Shown in pieces: positions 2,760 to 12,440 of a stretch of 12,688 bases of DNA (positions within the stretch are counted from its first letter, which is position 1; the number at the start of each line of letters is the position of its first letter). Both the position numbers and the translations under genes were made by a program. The notes below the pieces were generated by a model. It was not told where the DNA came from and made no database searches. It saw only the letters and a program-made list of their open reading frames with translations. The stretch comes from Nitrospirota bacterium (GTDB lineage: Bacteria > Nitrospirota > Thermodesulfovibrionia > Thermodesulfovibrionales > Dissulfurispiraceae): positions 1 through 12,688 of the forward strand of contig JBFMCP010000058.1 of assembly GCA_040754455.1 (NCBI GenBank). Direction: 5' to 3'.

Positions 2760-5186
2760 TTACCCGGCCTGCGGCGTACGGCCGAAGGGGTTCTCATGAG
2801 TCCCTGAATGCACATCCTTGCCGGCGAGCTCATCCATGGAGAGCACCTCATCAGCCAGTGCGACGACCTCGGGCGTATGGGAGATGAAGAACTCCCGTTC
2901 GTAGCCGCCGAGCTCCAAAACCCGCCGCTTTATGTGGATGAAGTCCTTCTTCTTCTCAGCATCGAGACCGCCGTCCTCCTCATCCGTGAAGAGGGTGCCA
3001 TAGGGGATGCCGCTTCTCCGCGCATTGAAGATGCATAAGGCATTCTTCACCGCAGCTTCGATGAGAATCTTCTCGCCGCCGGACATTGACCTTAGCGACT
3101 TCTGCTCGTTCCGTTCCGCATCAAAGACCACGATGTCGAAAATCTCCTTTGTTCCATTGCCTTTAGCCCTGTCCCCCTGCGTATCAATGCGCAACGAGAA
3201 CCTGCCGCCGAAGCAGGTATGAATGAGATCATTCGCGATCCCTGCTACGCTGGGGCCTGCATCGTCGATTTCGAGCGCAATCAGTCCGTCGTTGCCGAGC
3301 GCTTTTTCGAGAAAGGCCCACTCGGTAATATCTTTGCTCAGTATCGTGATCTGCTCGTTAACGGCCGCCAGGCGCCCTGCTGCTGCAGCTATCTGCCTGA
3401 GCTCCTCTTTGACCCGGCCTCTTTTTTCGAAGAGCCGCATCTGTTCATTCCGTACATCGGCAGTTGCCTTTGAGACGAGGGCATTGCGGTGCCGTGCCTT
3501 CTGCAGCGCTTCTTCGAGCCCCCCGGCATCGCTCATCGAATCAAGCTCTTTTCTGATATCATCCCTTTCCCGCTCAACAAAGGACAGTTCTCTGCGGAAT
3601 TCTTCTACGGTCCTATTCCCCTCCTCAATCAGTTCCCTGCGCTCCTGCTCGAGGAGGGGAAGCGCTCTCTCGGCCAGTTCTGCCTCAGGGAGCATTCTCA
3701 TCTTTTCACGAATGGCGACAAGTTTTCTTTCGAGTGCCATCAGCGATATTTTCACATGCTCCTTTGCAGCGAGGCAGCGCTTTACCTCGGCTTCGAGCTC
3801 CTGCTTTCGGACACTTTCTGCTTCAAGCGCCCTGATCTGCTCCTCGATGCGCTTCTCTTCGGCCTCTTTTTTGTCCAGCATGCTGAGGCGTTTCCGGAGT
3901 GAAGGCAGCGCCCTTCGCTCTTCTACAGCGGCTTTAACGAACGTGCATTCCGCAGCAGCAGCCGTCGTACCGCAGGGTAGAGCTCCGAGCTTCTCAGCAG
4001 CCTCTTCCGCCCGGCGGATATTCTGCTCCACTATTTCCTTTGCATGGCTCCGGTTAAGACGGAGGGTAGAGAGCTCTTTGGCGAGCTCCTCCATCCTTGT
4101 CTCAGTCTGTGCGGCTTTGGTGAGGAGCGCAGAGCATGAGACATAATGCGCATCGAGCTCCGCCTGTTTTTCTTTGAGGCTTTGAAAGGTCTGAGCAAGG
4201 GCCTCCTCGTCTTTTGCAGCGCTTCGCAGCGAGGCGACGGACCCGGCACGCTCTTTAGCCTCTTTCAATTTTGCGGTGACGGCCCGGTGTCTGGCATTGT
4301 AGAGCTCTCTCTTCTGCCGGAGCTGCGTATCGAGCTCCTTTGCCCTCGCCTCTTTCTCCGCAAGGCTCTTCAGCAGCAGTTCTCTCTTCTTCTCGTGATC
4401 ACGATGAAGGGTGATATGTACTTCAAGAACTTTGATCCTCTCATTGAGACAGGTCATCTCTTCCTCTAAGGCCCTGAGAGAGGTTTCCGTTTCTTCGAGT
4501 TTCCTCTCGATCTCCGCAAGACCGGCCTCCTTCTCCGGTGCGGCAGCGATGATCTCATTCAGATGCTGCTGCTCCTGGCGGAGCTCTTTGAGCGTACCAG
4601 AGAGTGCATCTTTCTGTCCCTTGGCGTGCTCGGCTTTTCTCTTGAGGTCTTCCGCATCGAGAAGCTCGGTGAATATCTCCTTCATCTCTCCCTTGGTGTA
4701 GCCGCTCAGTTCACGCGCCCTTTGGCGGCGGAATATGTAGGTAAAGAACCCGCGGGGGCTGCCGAGGAGCTCATGGACGGCGCGGTCGTAATCATCGAGC
4801 CTCCCGTCCCTCGTATCGCCGTATACCATCCATTCCTCTCCGTCCTTGAGAAACAGATATGCCTCCTGGCTCTTTCTTTGTGCATCGATACGCACCACGC
4901 TTTTGTACGTGCGGTCTCCGACAAGGAATTCCAGCTCTTTGCAGGCATCGCGGCCGTAGGTTTCATTGTAGAAGCTGAATGAGCCTTCGGAGTAGTCTCC
5001 TGACCGGTACGGCATGATCCGGTAGGGATGAAGGTTATCGAGCAGTGTTGTCTTACCACTCCCGATGGGACCGGTGATCGCCACCAAACCTTTCGACAGA
5101 TGAGAAAGGTCGATCTTCAGCTCATCCACGCCGCAGGCGGACCTGATTCCCTTGAACCCTTTCAAACGAATTTTTAGCGGAATCAT
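2760..5186 (-). CDS. SbcC/Rad50-like SMC-family ATPase, 808 aa
   Basis: N-terminal Walker A GPIGSGKTT, long coiled coil, central LPC-X8-C, ABC signature MSGGE, Walker B/D-loop LFTDEEDGGLD, H-loop FFISHT. Starts 15 nt after the SbcD-like stop, with GGAG SD. Confidence 0.93.
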   Translation of the reverse strand: MIPLKIRLKGFKGIRSACGVDELKIDLSHLSKGLVAITGPIGSGKTTLLDNLHPYRIMPYRSGDYSEGSFSFYNETYGRDACKELEFLVGDRTYKSVVRIDAQRKSQEAYLFLKDGEEWMVYGDTRDGRLDDYDRAVHELLGSPRGFFTYIFRRQRARELSGYTKGEMKEIFTELLDAEDLKRKAEHAKGQKDALSGTLKELRQEQQHLNEIIAAAPEKEAGLAEIERKLEETETSLRALEEEMTCLNERIKVLEVHITLHRDHEKKRELLLKSLAEKEARAKELDTQLRQKRELYNARHRAVTAKLKEAKERAGSVASLRSAAKDEEALAQTFQSLKEKQAELDAHYVSCSALLTKAAQTETRMEELAKELSTLRLNRSHAKEIVEQNIRRAEEAAEKLGALPCGTTAAAAECTFVKAAVEERRALPSLRKRLSMLDKKEAEEKRIEEQIRALEAESVRKQELEAEVKRCLAAKEHVKISLMALERKLVAIREKMRMLPEAELAERALPLLEQERRELIEEGNRTVEEFRRELSFVERERDDIRKELDSMSDAGGLEEALQKARHRNALVSKATADVRNEQMRLFEKRGRVKEELRQIAAAAGRLAAVNEQITILSKDITEWAFLEKALGNDGLIALEIDDAGPSVAGIANDLIHTCFGGRFSLRIDTQGDRAKGNGTKEIFDIVVFDAERNEQKSLRSMSGGEKILIEAAVKNALCIFNARRSGIPYGTLFTDEEDGGLDAEKKKDFIHIKRRVLELGGYEREFFISHTPEVVALADEVLSMDELAGKDVHSGTHENPFGRTPQAG

Positions 5187-5201
5187 AATGTCTCCATTTC
5201 T

Positions 5202-6920
5202 CTATTTACACTTACACTGAGCAGGCCCTCTCATTTCATCTTCTTCAAGCACCGTCAGCTTCGAAAGTATCCCCTCGGAAAGAGAGAGCCCATTGATCTC
5301 GGCATACTTCCTCAGTTTCTCCTCGAGGGAGCGTATCTGCGAGATGCCGGCTGCGCGCACCCGTTGCTGTGGAATTACCGACCGCTCGAACAGTACCTCG
5401 ACAGCTCCCTTATCCCTGAACGCACGCTCGATCGCTCGTTCGTCGACGGTCGCGAGTTCCTCTTGCCTGACCTTGTATTTGATGCGCACCGATGCTCCTG
5501 AAGTGATCTCAGGGATTCTGTGCAGAAGTGAGAGGTCCGGCTTTTCATTGAACTCGAATGTGAGGCGCGGTCTCGTGGGAATGATGATGAACCGTGACAG
5601 GAGTCCATCGGGCGAGAACTCGTGCACCCAGAAGCCCTTGTCCTCCTCTTCGCCGTAATTGAGCCGCGCGATCGAGCCGGAGTAGAAGACATTGTCCCGG
5701 TATTGCATCTTGTGCACATGGCCGAGGAGCACAAGATCCGCTCCCGATTGCTGCAGATCCTCGGTCCCGAGATCGATCGTCCGGCCTGTCGCCTGCTGGC
5801 CGGTGCTCATAACCGAGCCTTTTACCATCAGATGTCCTGCAAGGATGACCGGGATGCCCGCAGTCCGTGCCGCTGCCGAGAGATCATTCCAGAGCGTGAA
5901 TGTGCTTCTGAGGAGGTCGAACGGCTCTTTGTTCCCTTTCTCGAGAGAATGTTGCGCGCGCGAGACAAGCTCGGCCTTGCTTACCGGCGGGATGGCATAG
6001 ATGAGTGCATCGAGGGTGTCGATATCTTCAATGCCGTCGAACGTGCCCTCACGGAGGCCGATGCATCCGATGCGGTCCATGACGCGGACCGCATGTCGGG
6101 CTCCAATGTGGGATAAGACCTCGACGGTGCGGCCGTCGTGGTCGGAGGTGCCCTGGAGTACGAGCACCGGAGCGGTATTCGCGAGCGTCTTTATAAACGC
6201 AACCGCTTTCCGGAATGCGGGGGTATCATAATACTGCCGCTCATCGAGCAGGTCGCCTGCTGAGATAATGAGGTGAGGCCGCATGTGCTTCGCCGCTTTG
6301 ACAATAAACGCCGCGCTCTTTTTGATCTCCTCAAGGTCCTTGTCCCTGAAATGCTGGTCCGCAACATGGAGGACCCTGAGCTTCCGCGCGCCGCCTTTAT
6401 AGGAGAGGGTACGCACGACGAGGCCTTCGATGCCCGAAGGAAAGGAGCTCGTGCTGTATCCCATTGAGATGATCAGTCCCTCTGCCTGCGGCTTCACCTC
6501 GTCAGGTAGGTCGTGGAAGTGTTCGATCAGAATATCCACCTTATCCTGGGTATTCTCTATATCCTTCATGAAGGCGCTCCAGAAGGAGACCGCCTCCCTG
6601 GCATTCCCCACAGGAGGACGGGAGAATTCCTTCACGAGTCCTGACCACGAGAGAGTGCGGCGGCGCGCCTTGAGCCGCTCAAAGCCCGCTTCTCCCCCGA
6701 TTGCCTTATAGACCCTGTAGACCTGCGACAGGAAATCGGGGGGCACAGGGCAGCCCTCCTTTGCAAGGGCAATGGCAAGGCCCGGGAGTTTCTCCTCGCC
6801 GTTTCCGTGATATCGTTCGTGGAGGATCCTGCCGAGTTGGATATTCGTAGAGGCTGTTTCCATGATACTCTCGGACCGCTCCCGCAAGAGTTCCTTGAGA
6901 CTGTCCAAAAAGTCAGACAT
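5202..6920 (-). CDS. SbcD/Mre11-like metallophosphoesterase nuclease with a ~180-aa N-terminal extension, 572 aa
   Basis: Calcineurin-like motifs HVADQH, AGDLLD, QGTSDHD, LAGHL, LGHVH and YSGS..YGEEEDKG. SD AAGGAG precedes ATG 6920. Directly upstream of the SbcC-like gene. Confidence 0.9.
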   Translation of the reverse strand: MSDFLDSLKELLRERSESIMETASTNIQLGRILHERYHGNGEEKLPGLAIALAKEGCPVPPDFLSQVYRVYKAIGGEAGFERLKARRRTLSWSGLVKEFSRPPVGNAREAVSFWSAFMKDIENTQDKVDILIEHFHDLPDEVKPQAEGLIISMGYSTSSFPSGIEGLVVRTLSYKGGARKLRVLHVADQHFRDKDLEEIKKSAAFIVKAAKHMRPHLIISAGDLLDERQYYDTPAFRKAVAFIKTLANTAPVLVLQGTSDHDGRTVEVLSHIGARHAVRVMDRIGCIGLREGTFDGIEDIDTLDALIYAIPPVSKAELVSRAQHSLEKGNKEPFDLLRSTFTLWNDLSAAARTAGIPVILAGHLMVKGSVMSTGQQATGRTIDLGTEDLQQSGADLVLLGHVHKMQYRDNVFYSGSIARLNYGEEEDKGFWVHEFSPDGLLSRFIIIPTRPRLTFEFNEKPDLSLLHRIPEITSGASVRIKYKVRQEELATVDERAIERAFRDKGAVEVLFERSVIPQQRVRAAGISQIRSLEEKLRKYAEINGLSLSEGILSKLTVLEEDEMRGPAQCKCK

Positions 6921-6935
6921 AAAATCTCCTTCCAA

Positions 6936-7023
6936 GGCCCTCAGCGATCAGCTTTCAACGGTCAGCAAGGAAATGTGCGGCTATGTATCATGGTCTTTTG
7001 CTGATTGCTGATCGCTGAGGGCC
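6936..7023. repeat. Intergenic 17-bp perfect inverted repeat with inner 7-bp stem
   Basis: GGCCCTCAGCGATCAGC (6936-6952) / GCTGATCGCTGAGGGCC (7007-7023); inner TCAGCAA (6962-6968) / TTGCTGA (6998-7004). Confidence 0.9.
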
Positions 7024-7029
7024 GACAAC

Positions 7030-7884
7030 TTATTTCTGCTTCTGCAGGTGATCGATCAGGGCGCTCGCCTGTCCCTTCGACAGCTCTTTGAGTGACTCAA
7101 AGGGCTCGATGTCGAGGTCGAGGCTGGGGTTGAAGAATTTGTTCACCTCTTCGAGCATTCCGTCCTCTTCGTACCCCTTGCTCCGCAGGATTGCGTAGAT
7201 TGCTTTGATCTGCGCTTCTGTTGCCGGCGCATGGGGGTTCTTGATCACGCCGAAGCTGCCCCTTGTCTGGGGCTGCCGGGGCGGTGTCTTCGCAGTGCTT
7301 CCCTCAGACGCCTTGCCGCGCTCGAAGAGCTCTTCGGGCATGTCTTCGATGTCCTGCGTGAAGATGTCCGATGCAGCGGTCGAGGTGAGCACCGCATCGA
7401 CGAGCGCTCTCTTCTTGGCCATCTTGAGAATGGTATTGGCGAGATCGTAAGGATTGTTTCTTACCTGCCTGAGCTGTATGCCGCGCATATATTTGATACG
7501 GCGGTTTGTTTCAGACATCGCCTCCCACTCGTCGTCGCTCGCCGCCATCCTCCATTTGTACTTGTCCTCTTCACTCGAGCACTCGCCCAAACCTGCTCCG
7601 AAGAATATCCCGCTCTTGGTCGTAAGCCTGACCTTTACCCGATAGCGGATAACGTCATCGTGCGAAAGATCGACGACCTCGGGATCAGCCGAAAGCCTGA
7701 AGGTCGACATGATCTTCTCAGCACCGGGTTTGAACAGGGTCGGTTTGTCGCCCGCGCCGGGAATCTTTCCGTAATGCTGGCCCTCCTGCATGACGGTGCG
7801 CATCACTTCCTGGATCAGGTTGATCTGCTCTCTTATATCGTGTACGGTCAAAGGTTTCTCCTCATATACGGCTACTTCTGCCAT
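7030..7884 (-). CDS. Putative phage-type single-strand DNA annealing protein (Rad52/ERF/RecT-like) with small C-terminal helical domain, 284 aa
   Basis: HYGKIPG..KPTLFKPGAEK, YRVKVRL..GAGLGECSSEE and DLANTILKMAKKRALVDAVL..SDIFTQDIED resemble phage-associated conserved proteins with a Rad52-like layout. A Pro/Gln linker precedes ATEAQI...LSKGQASALIDHL. Strong SD AAGGAGG. The CDS is confident; the function is inferred. Confidence 0.7.
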   Translation of the reverse strand: MAEVAVYEEKPLTVHDIREQINLIQEVMRTVMQEGQHYGKIPGAGDKPTLFKPGAEKIMSTFRLSADPEVVDLSHDDVIRYRVKVRLTTKSGIFFGAGLGECSSEEDKYKWRMAASDDEWEAMSETNRRIKYMRGIQLRQVRNNPYDLANTILKMAKKRALVDAVLTSTAASDIFTQDIEDMPEELFERGKASEGSTAKTPPRQPQTRGSFGVIKNPHAPATEAQIKAIYAILRSKGYEEDGMLEEVNKFFNPSLDLDIEPFESLKELSKGQASALIDHLQKQK

Positions 7885-8124
7885 TATGTCCCTCCTTGAA
7901 TGGGTTTCGCTGTTTTTTCAGCGCACAAAGCCGCTCGCAATGCCATAGGGCATGCGATAGTTCCATCTCGGGCTGTGCGCAACCTGAGCGTGCAGTATGG
8001 CCGATATCGGCGGCATGTACGGATACATCCGTGAGTATTGCTTTTTTCTGCTGCTGCGGCCGTCGGAAGAGAGGGAGAAGCACAACATAACTGCAGGAAA
8101 ATCAAGCGGAATACTGCATCGTCT

Positions 8125-8154
8125 ATTATGACCTATTTGTCTCTGAAAACGCAA
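8125..8154 (-). promoter_or_regulatory. Putative sigma70 promoter of the SSAP-sbcD-sbcC cluster
   Basis: Minus strand TTGCGT (8154-8149), 18-nt spacer, CATAAT (8130-8125). Would give a leader of about 230 nt before ATG 7884. Confidence 0.4.
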
Positions 8155-8415
8155 GTAGAAGGTGTATTCCACGGCACTCTTCACAGTTGTATAAAGAGGT
8201 CATTGTAGCACACGCATTGTTCATTATCACCCGCTTTCGAGCGAGTAAACTTCATTGGGTATCCAGACGTCGTCCCCGTGAAAATGGAAAACCAGAACCT
8301 GTTAAGAATACCGGATTCCCGTTTCCACCGGAATGTGTGCGACCATGGCTTATACATTTTGTTACGTGCTCGTTGTTTGTAAATGTCTCTGCCTCTCAGT
8401 GTCCCTGTGGTTACA

Positions 8416-8424
8416 TGGTATAAT
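8416..8424 (+). promoter_or_regulatory. Extended -10 promoter of ppnP
   Basis: TGGTATAAT (TGn + TATAAT) at 8416-8424, followed by SD AGGAGG (8447-8452) and ATG 8464. Confidence 0.6.
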
Positions 8425-8463
8425 GGACAGTTGTACTACTTTCATCAGGAGGTTTTAGCAAGT

Positions 8464-8778
8464 ATGTCAGAGTTTAAAGGAGTGACTGTTGCTAAGAAAG
8501 CGAATATTTATTTCGATGGTAACGTGACGAGCAGGACGGTTATTTTCAATGACGGCTCGAAAAAGACGCTCGGTATAATGCTTCCGGGCGAATATGAGTT
8601 CGACACAGGAGACAAGGAGATAATGGAGATACTCTCCGGTGACCTCGATGTGCTGCTGCCGGATGAGACTGCTTGGAAGACGATAAAGGGCGGCGAATCG
8701 TTCGAGGTACCGGCACATGCGACGTTCAAACTCAAAGTGAAGAGCCTCACCGACTATTGCTGCTCGTTTATTAAATAG
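8464..8778 (+). CDS. ppnP: Pyrimidine/purine nucleoside phosphorylase (DUF1255/YaiE cupin)
   Basis: [44 protein letters not shown] and DYCCSF are the family signature. Confidence 0.93.
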
Positions 8779-8916
8779 AATGAGTCAAGAAGAACGAACC
8801 TCGGAGATACCGTCGGGTTGACGCAGACTAGAAGCATGAACTGCCTGTGTTAAGATGATTTTGGTGAGCAAAATCCGGCTTTCGGGATTCAGTGTCTCAG
8901 AGGTTGGCGGATAATT

Positions 8917-10437
8917 ATGATTCTCATCTATCCCCCTGTTGCAAAGCCTTGTGAGCCGCCGGCAGGCGTTGCGAAACTTTCGGGGGCACTCAGCCGCTGT
9001 GGAATAAAACACAAGGTCATCGATGCGAACATCGAGGGGCTCTTGTCGCTCCTGCAGCAACCACAGGTGCGGTTCGATACCTGGACGAATCGGGCCTCTC
9101 GAAACCTTGAGAAAAACCTTGCTGCACTGCGAGACCGGACAATATACAGCAACGTTGCGCGCTATAAACGCGCGGTCATGGATATCAACCGGGTTCTTGA
9201 GAAGTCCACACGGGACAGCAGTACAGCAGTGAGCCTTGCGAATTACCGGGATAACAACCTTTCACCCTTGCGGAGCAGGGATCTCCTGCGTTCCGCCGAG
9301 TATCCGGAGCGCAGTCCTTTTTATACCTACTTCGAAAGGCGCCTTTCGAGTGTTATTGAGCGGGAACAGCCGTCAACCGTTGGCATTTCGATCAATTTCC
9401 TGAGCCAGGCATTATGTGCCTTCGCGATGATCGGCTTTCTGAAAAAGAGGTATCCGGACATAACGATTGTCCTCGGCGGTGGGTTGGTGACCTCATGGGT
9501 CAGGGGCCCGAAGTGGCATAATCACTTTAGAGGATTGGTTGACCGGTTCGTTGCCGGGCCGGGTGAATATGAGTTGCCTGCTCTCCTCGGCAGCAAGGAT
9601 ATGGGTAAAGAACATGTTGCCCCTCGGTATGATCAATTGCCGCTTGCCGAGTATGTTGCACCAGGTCTGATCCTTCCCTACAGCGGATCGAGCGGCTGCT
9701 ACTGGAACAAATGTTCGTTCTGCCCTGAAAGAGCAGAGGGCAATCCTTATATTCCCGTAGCAGACGATATGGCTGCCGAAGACCTGAGGATGCTTGCACG
9801 GCTGACACGACCGGCGCTTATCCATATACTCGACAACTCGATGCGTACGGGGCTTATGAGAGCATTGATGCATAATCCCTCCGGTGTACCGTGGTACGGC
9901 TTTGCGAGAATCGGCAGAGAGCTCACCGATGATGATTTCTGTATGGCCTTGAAGCGTTCGGGATGCGTTATGCTCAAACTCGGATTGGAATCGGGAGACC
10001 AGGGAGTGCTTGATCATATGCACAAGGGTATTGATCTTGAAACCGCATCGCGGGCGCTCAGGGCCCTGAAGAGGGCAGGTATCGCCACCTATGTGTATCT
10101 CCTTTTCGGGACCCCTCCGGAGACAGAAGCGTCGGCGAGAATGACGCTCGAATTCACCGCCCGGCATAGCGACGCAATCAGCTTCCTGAATCTTGCGATC
10201 TTCAATATGCCCCTCTATGGACCGGAAGCGGAGCAGTTCGGCACCGGGAGTTTTTACGAAGGCGACCTCTCGCTCTACACCGATTTCAGACACCCGAAAG
10301 GGTGGAATCGAAAGCAGGTCCGGCTGTTTCTTGAAAACGATTTCAAGAGACATCCTGCCATTGCTCCGATCACGCAACAGGAACCCCCGTTCTTCACCTC
10401 CAACCATGCACCGCTTTTTTCAATGGAACAGAGATAA
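8917..10437 (+). CDS. Radical SAM protein with N-terminal B12-binding-like domain, 506 aa
   Basis: CxxxCxxC motif SSGCYWNKCSFC, LGLESG and YVYLLFGTPPET. N-terminal LIYPP, VGISINFLSQ and IVLGGG are typical of B12-binding radical SAM enzymes. Substrate unknown. Confidence 0.9.
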   Translation: MILIYPPVAKPCEPPAGVAKLSGALSRCGIKHKVIDANIEGLLSLLQQPQVRFDTWTNRASRNLEKNLAALRDRTIYSNVARYKRAVMDINRVLEKSTRDSSTAVSLANYRDNNLSPLRSRDLLRSAEYPERSPFYTYFERRLSSVIEREQPSTVGISINFLSQALCAFAMIGFLKKRYPDITIVLGGGLVTSWVRGPKWHNHFRGLVDRFVAGPGEYELPALLGSKDMGKEHVAPRYDQLPLAEYVAPGLILPYSGSSGCYWNKCSFCPERAEGNPYIPVADDMAAEDLRMLARLTRPALIHILDNSMRTGLMRALMHNPSGVPWYGFARIGRELTDDDFCMALKRSGCVMLKLGLESGDQGVLDHMHKGIDLETASRALRALKRAGIATYVYLLFGTPPETEASARMTLEFTARHSDAISFLNLAIFNMPLYGPEAEQFGTGSFYEGDLSLYTDFRHPKGWNRKQVRLFLENDFKRHPAIAPITQQEPPFFTSNHAPLFSMEQR

Positions 10438-10483
10438 TGGTGTGCGCCCTGTCGGACTTCTTGATGCGACTGCTCATAGCACT

Positions 10484-10511
10484 TTGTTCCGCTCAGGAAT
10501 AGAAGTATAAT
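10484..10511 (+). promoter_or_regulatory. Putative sigma70 promoter of the DUF3243 gene
   Basis: TTGTTC (10484-10489), 16-nt spacer, TATAAT (10506-10511). Confidence 0.4.
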
Positions 10512-10647
10512 TTAATTAACTCCGCACTCCATCTCATCCTCACGTGATTATATGCGAGCGCAAAAGGCGTATGTTCCTCCGGATACCCTGGTTTAGACAA
10601 GGAAAGGGGAGATGTACCTGTACACCTTTGTAGTCAAGGAGGGAACC

Positions 10648-10929
10648 ATGGAGAAAGTAATAGAAAAAATGAAATGTGTCGATTTGCTGGACGTGACAAA
10701 GGATTGGGATACCTTCAGAAAGACCCTGCACGAGGGGATAGCACAGGCGCGCCAGCTCGGTATGTCCGACGAGGAGATTCAGGAACTGGCAACGACCGTC
10801 GGCGACTTCCTCAACGAGAAGGTCTGCCCTGCAACAAAAGAGGAAGCGCTTCTGAAAGAGATGTGGGATGTTGCTTCGACAGACGAAAGAAGGTGCATGG
10901 CCACCGTCCTTTTCAAGATGATGAAGTAA
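10648..10929 (+). CDS. DUF3243 (YmfJ-like) family protein, 93 aa
   Basis: WDTFRKTL..ARQLGMSDEEI..ATTVGDFL..VCP..EEALLKEMWDVA..ERR.MA.VLFKM follows the DUF3243 pattern. SD AAGGAGG precedes ATG 10648. Confidence 0.82.
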   Translation: MEKVIEKMKCVDLLDVTKDWDTFRKTLHEGIAQARQLGMSDEEIQELATTVGDFLNEKVCPATKEEALLKEMWDVASTDERRCMATVLFKMMK

Positions 10930-10987
10930 TGTGAGTGCTCCCCTTTCTTTTCTAAACATTCGGGAATTACGTGTTGGGACAGTGGAT

Positions 10988-11034
10988 GGCAACGGCAGGA
11001 AGGGGCGGAGGGAGTGCCCCTTTCTGCCGTTGCC
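10988..11034 (+). repeat. 19-bp intergenic hairpin
   Basis: GGCAACGGCAGGAAGGGGC (10988-11006) / GCCCCTTTCTGCCGTTGCC (11016-11034): 18 Watson-Crick pairs plus one G-U on the + strand, 9-nt loop, no U-tract. Confidence 0.85.
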
Positions 11035-11088
11035 TGCTGCGGGAATTCATAATGGAGCACGAAGGGAGGAATCTGATATTATAGAAGA

Positions 11089-11694
11089 ATGGGTGAACGA
11101 CAACTTTATCAACCGCTTACCAAAGAGGACAGGATAACGGTACTCCTCTACCGTATCGGCATCGGGCTCTCGACGCTTATTATCACTTTCGCCGCTTATC
11201 TTTCATTCGGCCCCTCACCCTTTCACTATGCCCTGTCGCTCAATAGCGTGGCGAATATATTGCTTATCCTGCTCTCTCTGTCGGTAGGCTGCAGCGTTCT
11301 TTTCATACATCTCTATGTGAGCAGATTCCACAGGGCACTGAAGAAGCTCTACTATGTTTCAATAGCTGCGCTCCTGCTCCTCTTTATTTTAGGAAGAGGG
11401 GATGCCTTCGGCATCATTATCGGTGAGCCCTACGGTCCTCTCCTGCTCATTCCGCTCTCGGGATGTCTGGGGTTTATTACCGCAAAAGAGGCCTTTTGCT
11501 TCAGACTGACCGAAGGGTACCTCCTTGCGCTCATTATGCCGTTGTATCTTCTGGCGCTGTCAATGGGGGGGATGACCACAAAAGGAGCATCGTACGGCCT
11601 TCTGTTTATAGCGGCAATGCTCGTCTTCTTTACTCTCAGAAAAGTATTCATGCCGATCCATTACGATATCGGCGATAAATCCGCATACGTCTAG
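11089..11694 (+). CDS. DUF2301 family integral membrane protein
   Basis: EDRITVLLYR, FIHLY..FHRALK, AKEAFCFR..E and LRK...P...DIGDKSAY match DUF2301 motifs; several hydrophobic helices. Confidence 0.82.
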   Translation: MGERQLYQPLTKEDRITVLLYRIGIGLSTLIITFAAYLSFGPSPFHYALSLNSVANILLILLSLSVGCSVLFIHLYVSRFHRALKKLYYVSIAALLLLFILGRGDAFGIIIGEPYGPLLLIPLSGCLGFITAKEAFCFRLTEGYLLALIMPLYLLALSMGGMTTKGASYGLLFIAAMLVFFTLRKVFMPIHYDIGDKSAYV

Positions 11695-11740
11695 CTCTTC
11701 GCCTTGATTCTGTCCCCTCCCAGGCTGGAACATAGTGGTG

Positions 11741-12440
11741 TTAGGACAATACCTTCTCGATAAGACCCGCGACATCGGTGATGCAGAGGTCCTCGGCAAT
11801 TTCATTCCCCTTAACTCCTGATCCGCTGATAATAAGCGGCAGATAGTCCTGTTCGGTGAGGGGCGGGTAGCCGTGGGAGCCTTTTATCAGGCCGGTATCC
11901 TGGGGTACTTTGAAGGTGCCCGGCTCGATAAAGAGTTCGAGGGGATCATACCCCGGCTTCCGGTGAATATCCACGTGGGGAGCGAAGTGCGGCTCTTTTG
12001 CCCGGTCCTCCCACCAGTAGTAGGAGAACCGGGAGGCCCTTGAGCTTACGGCGATGAATGTCCCTGCACGAGGATGGTCGATGTGGTAGTCTGCCTTACT
12101 GCGGGCATCGAGGAGCATATCGATCCCCTCCACTTTCTCGACGGCGCTTCGTACCTCGTGCTCATGTCCTGCTTTTACTATAGATATGGGCAACCTGGTG
12201 ATCCACCATGGCAAAGGCAGGGCTAAGCTCGAAATCGAGGTATTCCCTTCCGCCGATCATACGCACGGCCCCAGAAATAAAAGAGATTGAAATCGCCGAT
12301 CGCTGAACAGATATCTTCATAGAGGCCGGCGGGCTTGGAGTAGCACCATTGGACCAGGCCCTGCACGGTGTAGAGCGGCTTTGGTGTAATGACCGAACCC
12401 ATGAGTGATTGTTCATTGCAGCTCGACGGCGGGTGACGGA
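11741..12440 (-). pseudogene. Decayed alkaline phosphatase/nucleotide pyrophosphatase family (EboF-like) gene
   Basis: Family motifs are split over three frames: VITPKP..CYSKPAGLY..GDFNLFYFWG; AVRMIGGREYLDFELSPAFAMVDHQVAHIY; and VKAG..HPRAG..YYWW..VDIHRKPGYDPLELF..IKGSHG. Frameshift near 12179, large deletion near 12270, 5' end cut by an IS. The 5' limit is approximate. Confidence 0.82.

Follow-up and report, generated by a model that had tools for sequence, protein, structure and literature searches.

We have analysed a nuclease gene from a Nitrospirota bacterium (order Thermodesulfovibrionales) in which an SbcD/Mre11 phosphoesterase of phage type carries an additional N-terminal helical domain, the greater part of which appears from profile comparisons to be a remote homologue of DUF1016_N, the domain that precedes the nuclease of YhcG-type proteins. 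The gene occupies positions 5202-6920 on the minus strand of the window, which is the entire 12,688-bp contig JBFMCP010000058.1 (C58) of a 3.27-Mb, 92-contig genome (GCA_040754455.1, here G000), and forms a single open reading frame (ORF) of 572 aa in which the N-terminal domain is followed by a linker and by the phosphoesterase with its capping and C-terminal regions. We hold the identity of the gene and of its domain, and the homology proposed for each, with good confidence; that the domain serves the phage nuclease as a recognition or recruitment module is our best overall explanation, and a moderately probable one. What is new here is the DUF1016_N-like domain at the N-terminus of an SbcD/Mre11 protein, the phage SbcD/Mre11 nuclease type being already known. 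A first-pass annotation, made from the letters of the sequence, had described an architecture that it did not recognize; the fusion is indeed rare, and no description of an SbcD/Mre11 protein with a DUF1016_N-like domain was found in the literature searched.

The nuclease itself is readily assigned. Residues 181-572 (5202-6380, minus strand) form the SbcD/Mre11 core, with a Pfam Metallophos match (PF00149) over residues 181-404 at 37.3 bits against a cut-off of 21.5 (E = 4.8e-9) and a match over residues 180-546 to phrog_100 (‘SbcD-like’, ‘SbcD-like subunit of palindrome specific endonuclease’; E = 7.5e-26), and with an SbcC-like gene adjacent, all of which bears out the earlier naming of the protein as an SbcD/Mre11 nuclease. 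Position 1 of both the Metallophos model and TIGR00619 (sbcd) falls on residue 181, and position 2 of NF008206 on residue 182, where the phosphoesterase had been said to begin. The NCBIfam cut-offs for bacterial SbcD are missed (39.5 vs 77.65 bits for TIGR00619; 27.2 vs 450 for NF008206), and we therefore place the nuclease in the phage SbcD/Mre11 branch rather than with canonical bacterial SbcD; T4 gp47 and bacterial SbcD we take to be members of the same nuclease type. Metal-binding motifs in these enzymes are defined as DxH (I), GD (II), GH (IV) and GHxH (V). As in the phage proteins of PHROG 100, these four are intact in our alignment of the protein with its relatives (A1): motif I is L184-H185-x-x-D188-x-H190, motif II G222-D223, motif IV H363 and motif V H401-x-H403, with D188, H190, G222, D223, H363, H401 and H403 invariant across 15 aligned sequences. 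It should be noted that motif III, usually G-N-H-D/E with a metal-binding Asn, differs from that of the phage SbcD/Mre11 proteins throughout the family of the fused nuclease, reading G257-T258-x-x-H261-D262, invariant in 15 relatives and with no Asn. The YhcG-type C-terminal PD-(D/E)XK nuclease domain (PF06250) has no match in the 572-aa protein by Pfam scan. Source genome G000 is marker-complete and contains no other SbcD-like gene; its sole SbcD-like match is the fused phage-type gene, and no canonical SbcD scores above the TIGR00619 cut-off.

Mre11/SbcD nucleases normally begin directly with the catalytic motif, whereas here 180 residues precede it, encoded at 6381-6920 just as the first-pass annotation had marked them. 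They comprise the domain proper (residues 1-155; 6456-6920, minus strand) and a linker (residues 156-180; 6381-6455, minus strand) that is variable in length and sequence among homologues and poorly conserved in A1. An AlphaFold (AF2) model of the domain is all-helical, with nine helices (pLDDT 82.7, pTM 0.62), and 25 columns are invariant among nine fused proteins; the last helix carries the conserved pattern P-x6-A-E-G-x5-G (P139, A146, E147, G148, G154). Compared with the orthologue in a congeneric genome (G202), the domain is 83% and the linker 56% identical, and the ratio of nonsynonymous to synonymous substitution (dN/dS) rises from 0.085 in the domain through 0.127 in the core and 0.159 in the neighbouring SbcC to 0.30 in the linker, figures that are rough in that dS is about 1.4 and close to saturation. 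Purifying selection on the domain is thus, as estimated from these sequences, at least as strong as that on the catalytic core. The start codon of the gene is the ATG at 6920, with GGAG ahead of it; an in-frame TTG at 6935 is unlikely to be used, given that each of the four other assemblies compared lacks 14 nt at about 6945, and no separate start for the core is apparent, there being on reading no ATG, GTG or TTG shortly ahead of residue 181. Searches with residues 1-180 gave no match in Pfam, PHROGs, PADLOC or NCBIfam. A profile of the domain against PDB sequences gave at best a magnesium channel at E = 0.73, which we took as noise, and the ESM Atlas returned unnamed clusters at 0.94 (159-164 shared features) and one DUF6192 cluster at 0.92.

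The fusion is real. Sixteen homologues of the 572-aa protein were found, and 11 of them (565-614 aa, 38-99% identity) cover 97-100% of it including the N-terminus; four more (P0012-P0015, 397-417 aa) cover just the last 67% and begin on motif I or no more than a few residues from it (P0012 and P0013 read MKILHCGD), and one matches 9% of the query only. The extension is a conserved feature of a subgroup, since 11 homologues are full-length and four lack the N-terminal part, and the short forms agree with the earlier remark that motif I usually lies near the N-terminus. Moreover, positions 5900-7100 are covered by one unbroken contig in each of two other studies (X2, 12.3 kb; X5, 12.1 kb), and these contigs differ within the gene by substitutions only, the sole indel being a 14-nt difference in the upstream spacer, so that two independent metagenome assemblies cross the junction without indels. 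The separate genes or assembly error that the first-pass annotation had named as grounds for abandoning its proposal were accordingly not seen: the relatives have a single ORF and the contigs run through.

The relationship to DUF1016_N was traced through intermediate proteins. A profile of nine of the domains (A2), searched against 1.84 billion representatives, found 38 proteins: 16 joined to the same phosphoesterase, four standalone proteins of 147-211 aa (P0022, P0023, P0025 and P0026), three short fragments, 14 proteins of 230-304 aa, and one plant PPR protein, which we regard as a false positive. Among the 16, which confirm the same fusion by the architecture search that had been suggested, 15 have a Metallophos match and the truncated P0019 ends in motif I, as judged by eye. 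The 14 proteins of 230-304 aa, which we call intermediates, match A2 at E values of 1.4e-13 to 1.1e-5, and eight of them match the DUF1016_N model PF17761 over the same residues (E = 4.2e-8 to 7.5e-4), two above the gathering cut-off: P0036 and P0038, with A2 E values of 1.5e-10 and 5.6e-10, both score 33.8 bits against a PF17761 cut-off of 32.8. The intermediates are the closest relatives of the domain outside SbcD; they have no SbcD fusion, extend some 70-140 residues past the domain at the C-terminus, and form a separate clade, and by eye both they and the standalone group share the conserved final helix.

Profile-profile comparisons with hhalign also support the homology; as an independent reference they used the N-domains of 15 canonical YhcG-type proteins encoded elsewhere in the phylum, in other genomes. 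Thirty SbcD-type domains, fused and standalone, matched the canonical domains with a probability of 83.4% (E = 8.5e-6, 105 columns), the 14 intermediates with 96.0% (E = 4.2e-9, 95 columns), and SbcD-type domains and intermediates together with 95.6% (E = 1.3e-8, 100 columns), while the 30 SbcD-type domains matched the 14 intermediates with 99.9% (E = 1.9e-33, 159 columns). Controls with reversed and 20 column-shuffled templates reached at most 0.6% probability and a score of 15.9, compared with 39.4-59.4 for the real comparisons. Conserved positions coincide in the two families, G30 with the G of IGR, L52 with LAxxL, R69 with MRxFY, and L90 and W92 with LSW, and the aligned IGR, LAxxL, RxxY and LSW are the very motifs whose spacing had drawn attention to the resemblance. 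On the strength of these profiles, the first 105-120 or so residues are a divergent DUF1016_N domain, a remote homologue standing outside the Pfam family as defined. The resemblance originally proposed thus survives as remote homology, through the intermediates and the hhalign comparisons, and not as a direct Pfam match. Genome G000 contains no canonical DUF1016_N, and the domain is present in 33 of 151 genomes sampled from the phylum.

The fusion is rare, making up 16 clusters at 50% identity among the 1.84 billion representatives. Of 401 genomes sampled across the phylum, eight have the domain, and every one belongs to the order of the window: the fused form is present in five (G000, G202, G338, G312 and G316), the intermediate type in two (G160 and G062) and a pseudogene in one (G235). 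In a tree of the domain, all SbcD-type and standalone domains form one clade apart from the intermediates (support 100 on both sides; SH-aLRT). In a tree of 70 cores the fused proteins fall in two groups, a long-branched clade of eight (support 100) and a second clade of 18, which also takes in the unfused P0012 and P0013 (support 99) and branches from among unfused viral sequences. An approximately unbiased (AU) test on a 34-row subset under LG+G4 gave p-AU = 0.040 against a single clade of all fused rows, a value to be read with the group having been named post hoc, after the tree was seen, and with long branches involved. This is suggestive, not decisive, of two fusions or a transfer of the domain, and a single origin with losses may be the alternative history. 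As far as these sequences indicate, the fusion is rare but old and sits in two distinct SbcD lineages. The standalone SbcD-type domains were also seen on two short metagenome contigs (L100, 291-773; L101, 592-1227), where the upstream gene has a conserved C-terminus with a C-x10-C-x3-C-x5-C cysteine cluster and no SbcD gene begins downstream of the domain; the standalone form was on no viral contig.

Adjoining genes place the nuclease in a phage setting. In minus-strand order the window contains a 284-aa gene (7030-7884), the fused gene and an 808-aa gene (2760-5186) that begins 16 nt past the SbcD stop. The last is an SbcC/Rad50-like ATPase (phrog_77, ‘SbcC-like’, 3.1e-43; weak SMC_N and AAA_23 matches in Pfam), and an SbcC lies beside the fused gene in all four other genomes; SbcC was also found in 40 of the 79 viral loci described below, which hold the same nuclease core. 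In G338, G312 and G316 (L111-L113) the fused gene and SbcC stand among phage replication genes, with neighbours that include a RecG-like helicase, dUTPase, sliding clamp, ribonucleotide reductase, SSB, RuvC-like resolvase, HNH endonuclease and methyltransferase; an SbcC-like ATPase and a phage replication-module context are likewise what is found with phage SbcD/Mre11. These gene contents, with the 168 relatives of the core in viral contigs described below, mark the fused nuclease as phage-derived. In G338 (L111, 11820-13310), an endonuclease-like gene, a DNA methyltransferase gene and two more ORFs lie between the fused SbcD and SbcC, which are about 3.7 kb apart.

The 284-aa protein belongs to PHROG 10048 (‘unknown function’), which has more than 6000 homologues and no Pfam family. 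Its model (pLDDT 78.6) has two recognizable parts, a Rad52-fold N-domain (residues ~11-176) in which the Rad52-type beta-beta-beta-alpha core is found and a Red-beta-like C-terminal domain (residues ~216-284), and on this model the protein is a Rad52-superfamily annealing protein with a partner-binding domain. In G000 and G202 its gene is the one immediately upstream of the fused nuclease. DNA similarity between these two genomes (74-77%) is confined to window positions 2813-7902 and L110 positions 6514-11762, that is, to the three genes, with different flanks; since the similarity stops there, the trio appears as a 5.1-kb cassette in different chromosomal settings.

In our explanation, a phage-type SbcD/Mre11 nuclease that would work with the adjacent SbcC/Rad50-like ATPase has gained at its N-terminus, through a variable 25-residue linker, the helical domain of about 155 residues, and this domain would act as a flexibly tethered recognition or recruitment module. 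Such a module would give an Mre11-Rad50-type machine an extra surface with which to locate its substrate or its place of action, during phage recombination-dependent replication or repair. Three relatives lie in phage replication/recombination modules, and this genome retains a surviving trio of annealing protein, fused nuclease and ATPase. We read the domain in this way because related domains are found ahead of other nucleases or, on mobile elements, by themselves. The YhcG proteins (PF17761 + PF06250; COG4804) have the same kind of N-terminal helical domain, with IGR, LAxxL, RxxY and LSW, ahead of a nuclease. They differ from the protein described here in that their nuclease is PD-(D/E)XK and not an Mre11-type phosphoesterase, and in that the domain here fails the Pfam model, is not basic and has a conserved C-terminal helix of its own. 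The YhcG N-domain, placed ahead of a PD-(D/E)XK nuclease, was described in 2005 as a helical region of some 200 aa that matched no structure and had been given no function (PMC1189080); another paper reports DUF1016 genes on mobile or defence-linked DNA, with an enrichment next to invertible loci and restriction-modification genes (PMC9881135). In two genomes of the same order, intermediate-type genes (L114, 9471-10184, and L115, 9699-10409, both minus strand) that encode standalone DUF1016_N-like proteins of some 236 aa come immediately downstream of a helicase gene of the SF1 type (AAA_30/UvrD_C_2). Their surroundings resemble an integrative and conjugative element (ICE) and hold genes for TraT, a TraG/TraD coupling protein, an HTH and IrrE pair and a ParB-like protein. 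Intermediate P0036 has a weak HNH match (E = 0.0017, under the cut-off). By analogy with this repeated N-terminal placement on nucleases, recognition of nucleic acid or of a DNA structure may be what the domain does; it is our leading reading, and a tentative one.

Several results weigh against this explanation, in its homology as well as in its function. The hidden Markov model (HMM) scan and the AlphaFold and Foldseek comparison that the first-pass annotation had proposed as checks gave no PF17761 match and no usable fold match, respectively. The window's domain does not match PF17761 at E<=0.1 in a Pfam scan, none of nine fused members does so at E<=10 (a scan limited by the HMMER filters, which remove most matches above about E 0.1), and the remaining fused representatives do not at E<=0.001. 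Searches with the domain model gave no convincing fold in the PDB with Foldseek (best E 1.2) or in BFVD (best E 0.56), results that include no YhcG-type structure and are usable neither for nor against any fold; since no fold match was found, sequence profiles are the sole basis of the homology. With hhalign, the nine-sequence profile A2 by itself reached just 22% against the canonical N-domains (P = 9e-4, 89 columns), and the match to canonical YhcG domains spans the first 105-120 of 155 residues, with the final helix outside. As to function, the pI of the domain is 5.6 and that of 24 of the 30 SbcD-type domains is below 8, compared with 8.4-10.1 (about 9.5) in all 15 canonical domains, and DNA binding is not favoured over partner docking because the domain is not basic; the SbcD-type domains do retain a basic stretch ahead of LSW (RLKARRR, residues 82-88) and the invariant R69. 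Literature searches found no experimental work on any DUF1016_N domain. Finally, we found 168 relatives of the nuclease core in viral contigs of IMG/VR and fetched 79 of the loci with a neighbourhood of up to 8 kb; in none of the 79 is the domain fused or nearby, and in the closest 40 or so the match begins at query residues ~160-183. The same core therefore does not generally need the domain and linker that distinguish the fused protein from other phage SbcD/Mre11 nucleases. We had also considered a split arrangement, with a standalone domain gene beside an extension-less SbcD gene, and rejected it on the same 79 loci, on the lack of a standalone form in viral contigs and on the two short metagenome contigs described above.

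Of the alternatives, it is possible, if on balance doubtful, that the domain is a protein-docking adaptor and not a DNA binder, tethering the nuclease to a recombination or replication partner; the upstream annealing protein (through its C-terminal domain), SSB and proteins of the replisome are candidates. Docking would join resection with annealing in the manner of lambda Exo and Red-beta, and the cassette likewise pairs a Rad52-superfamily annealing protein, with a C-terminal domain similar to that of Red-beta, with a DNA-end nuclease; it differs in that the nuclease is of the Mre11-Rad50 type and not a PD-(D/E)XK exonuclease, and the partnership is a putative one. Because a Red-beta-like domain is encoded next door, docking is attractive for this cassette, and it is in keeping with a neutral to acidic domain that sits on a flexible linker and also exists standalone, and with the annealing-protein gene lying immediately upstream of the fused gene in G000 and G202. 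The two proteins also share a longest-contig figure in three metagenome contigs, which is weak evidence. However, blastp and HMM searches with the whole 284-aa protein and with each half found no member of its family in the 20-kb neighbourhoods of the fused genes of G338, G312 and G316 or in any of the 79 viral loci; it is only in the sub-clade of the window that the family goes together with the fused nuclease, and its absence from those loci means that the annealing protein cannot be the general partner.

We consider it unlikely that the domain is a regulatory or assembly element, which would autoinhibit or gate the active site, or add an oligomerization contact to the SbcD dimer, so that the phage's own DNA is protected until a signal arrives. 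The strong purifying selection on the domain and its position, always N-terminal and beside motif I, would suit such a role, and since SbcC alone is conserved alongside throughout the five genomes, any partner may belong to the complex itself. Nevertheless, a long variable linker argues against a fixed intramolecular contact, and there are relatives that stand alone or occur in other contexts, downstream of the SF1 helicase gene in the ICE-like regions and ahead of PD-(D/E)XK domains.

Somewhat more unlikely still is that the likeness to DUF1016_N is convergent or spurious and the extension a helical domain peculiar to its lineage, with no kinship to that family. Weak profile matches are common among helical proteins, neither a direct Pfam match nor a structural one was obtained, and the hhalign probability was only 22% with nine sequences and 83% with 30. 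Against this, both steps of the chain are significant, the first at E values of 1e-13 to 1e-5 against 1.84 billion proteins and the second down to 4.2e-8 for PF17761, both cover the same residues of the intermediates, the control scores stay far below the real ones, and the most conserved positions of the two families align. That the fusion is an artefact (a lost stop codon, frameshift, chimeric assembly or miscalled start) is highly improbable even for a short 12.7-kb contig in a 92-contig assembly, with the same single ORF in 16 cluster representatives and four other genomes of the order, contigs of other studies crossing the junction indel-free, and the domain in frame under purifying selection.

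Some further features of the window and its relatives deserve mention. The spacer between the annealing-protein and nuclease genes holds an inverted repeat (6936-7023, no strand assigned) with 22-nt arms at 6936-6957 and 7002-7023 that are 91% complementary and 44 nt apart; the 14-nt indel at about 6945 falls inside one arm, and the contigs of all four other runs lack those nucleotides. An attenuator, a terminator and a mobile palindrome are candidate roles for this element. A promoter/terminator scan gave counts at shuffle expectation. No convincing att-like direct repeats flank the cassette, and the flanking genes are ordinary cellular ones by Pfam (a zinc-type alcohol dehydrogenase, an RsmE-type RNA methyltransferase, a ComEA-like HHH protein, Ppnp, a B12/radical-SAM enzyme and DUF2301). 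We rejected a reading of the locus as a defence system: PADLOC gave no matches for the nuclease or the annealing protein and merely weak ones for SbcC (mad3, 3.7e-7; LmuB, 7.6e-4). The coiled-coil apex of SbcC (residues ~405-416) reads by eye P-C-G-T-T-A-A-A-A-E-C (C-x9-C), where the usual Rad50 zinc hook is CxxC. In five of the viral contigs, SbcD and SbcC matches occur within one frame of about 1200-1470 aa (L055, 7980-11720; L076, 348-3938; L077, 1365-5786; L088, 8001-11531; L089, 7827-11558), which suggests that natural SbcD-SbcC fusion proteins exist in some phages.

In summary, a domain of the DUF1016_N type is linked here to a second, unrelated class of nuclease, which suggests that DUF1016_N works for nucleases at large and is not tied to PD-(D/E)XK chemistry. 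We propose, as a possibility that is far from assured, that DUF1016_N-like domains are portable front-end modules, joined to PD-(D/E)XK nucleases in YhcG, to the Mre11 type here (possibly twice independently) and perhaps to HNH nucleases, and that in the present case the module would couple an Mre11-Rad50 machine to a DNA feature or to the annealing or replication machinery. If true, this would be a first function for a widespread domain found in restriction and defence loci. Furthermore, the more than 6000 unannotated proteins of PHROG 10048 would gain a predicted fold, that of a Rad52-type annealing protein with a Red-beta-like partner-binding domain. In eukaryotes the targeting of Mre11 is the task of separate partners, Nbs1 and CtIP; a phage lineage in which an accessory domain has been welded onto the nuclease itself would offer a simple system for asking how an Mre11 machine is directed.

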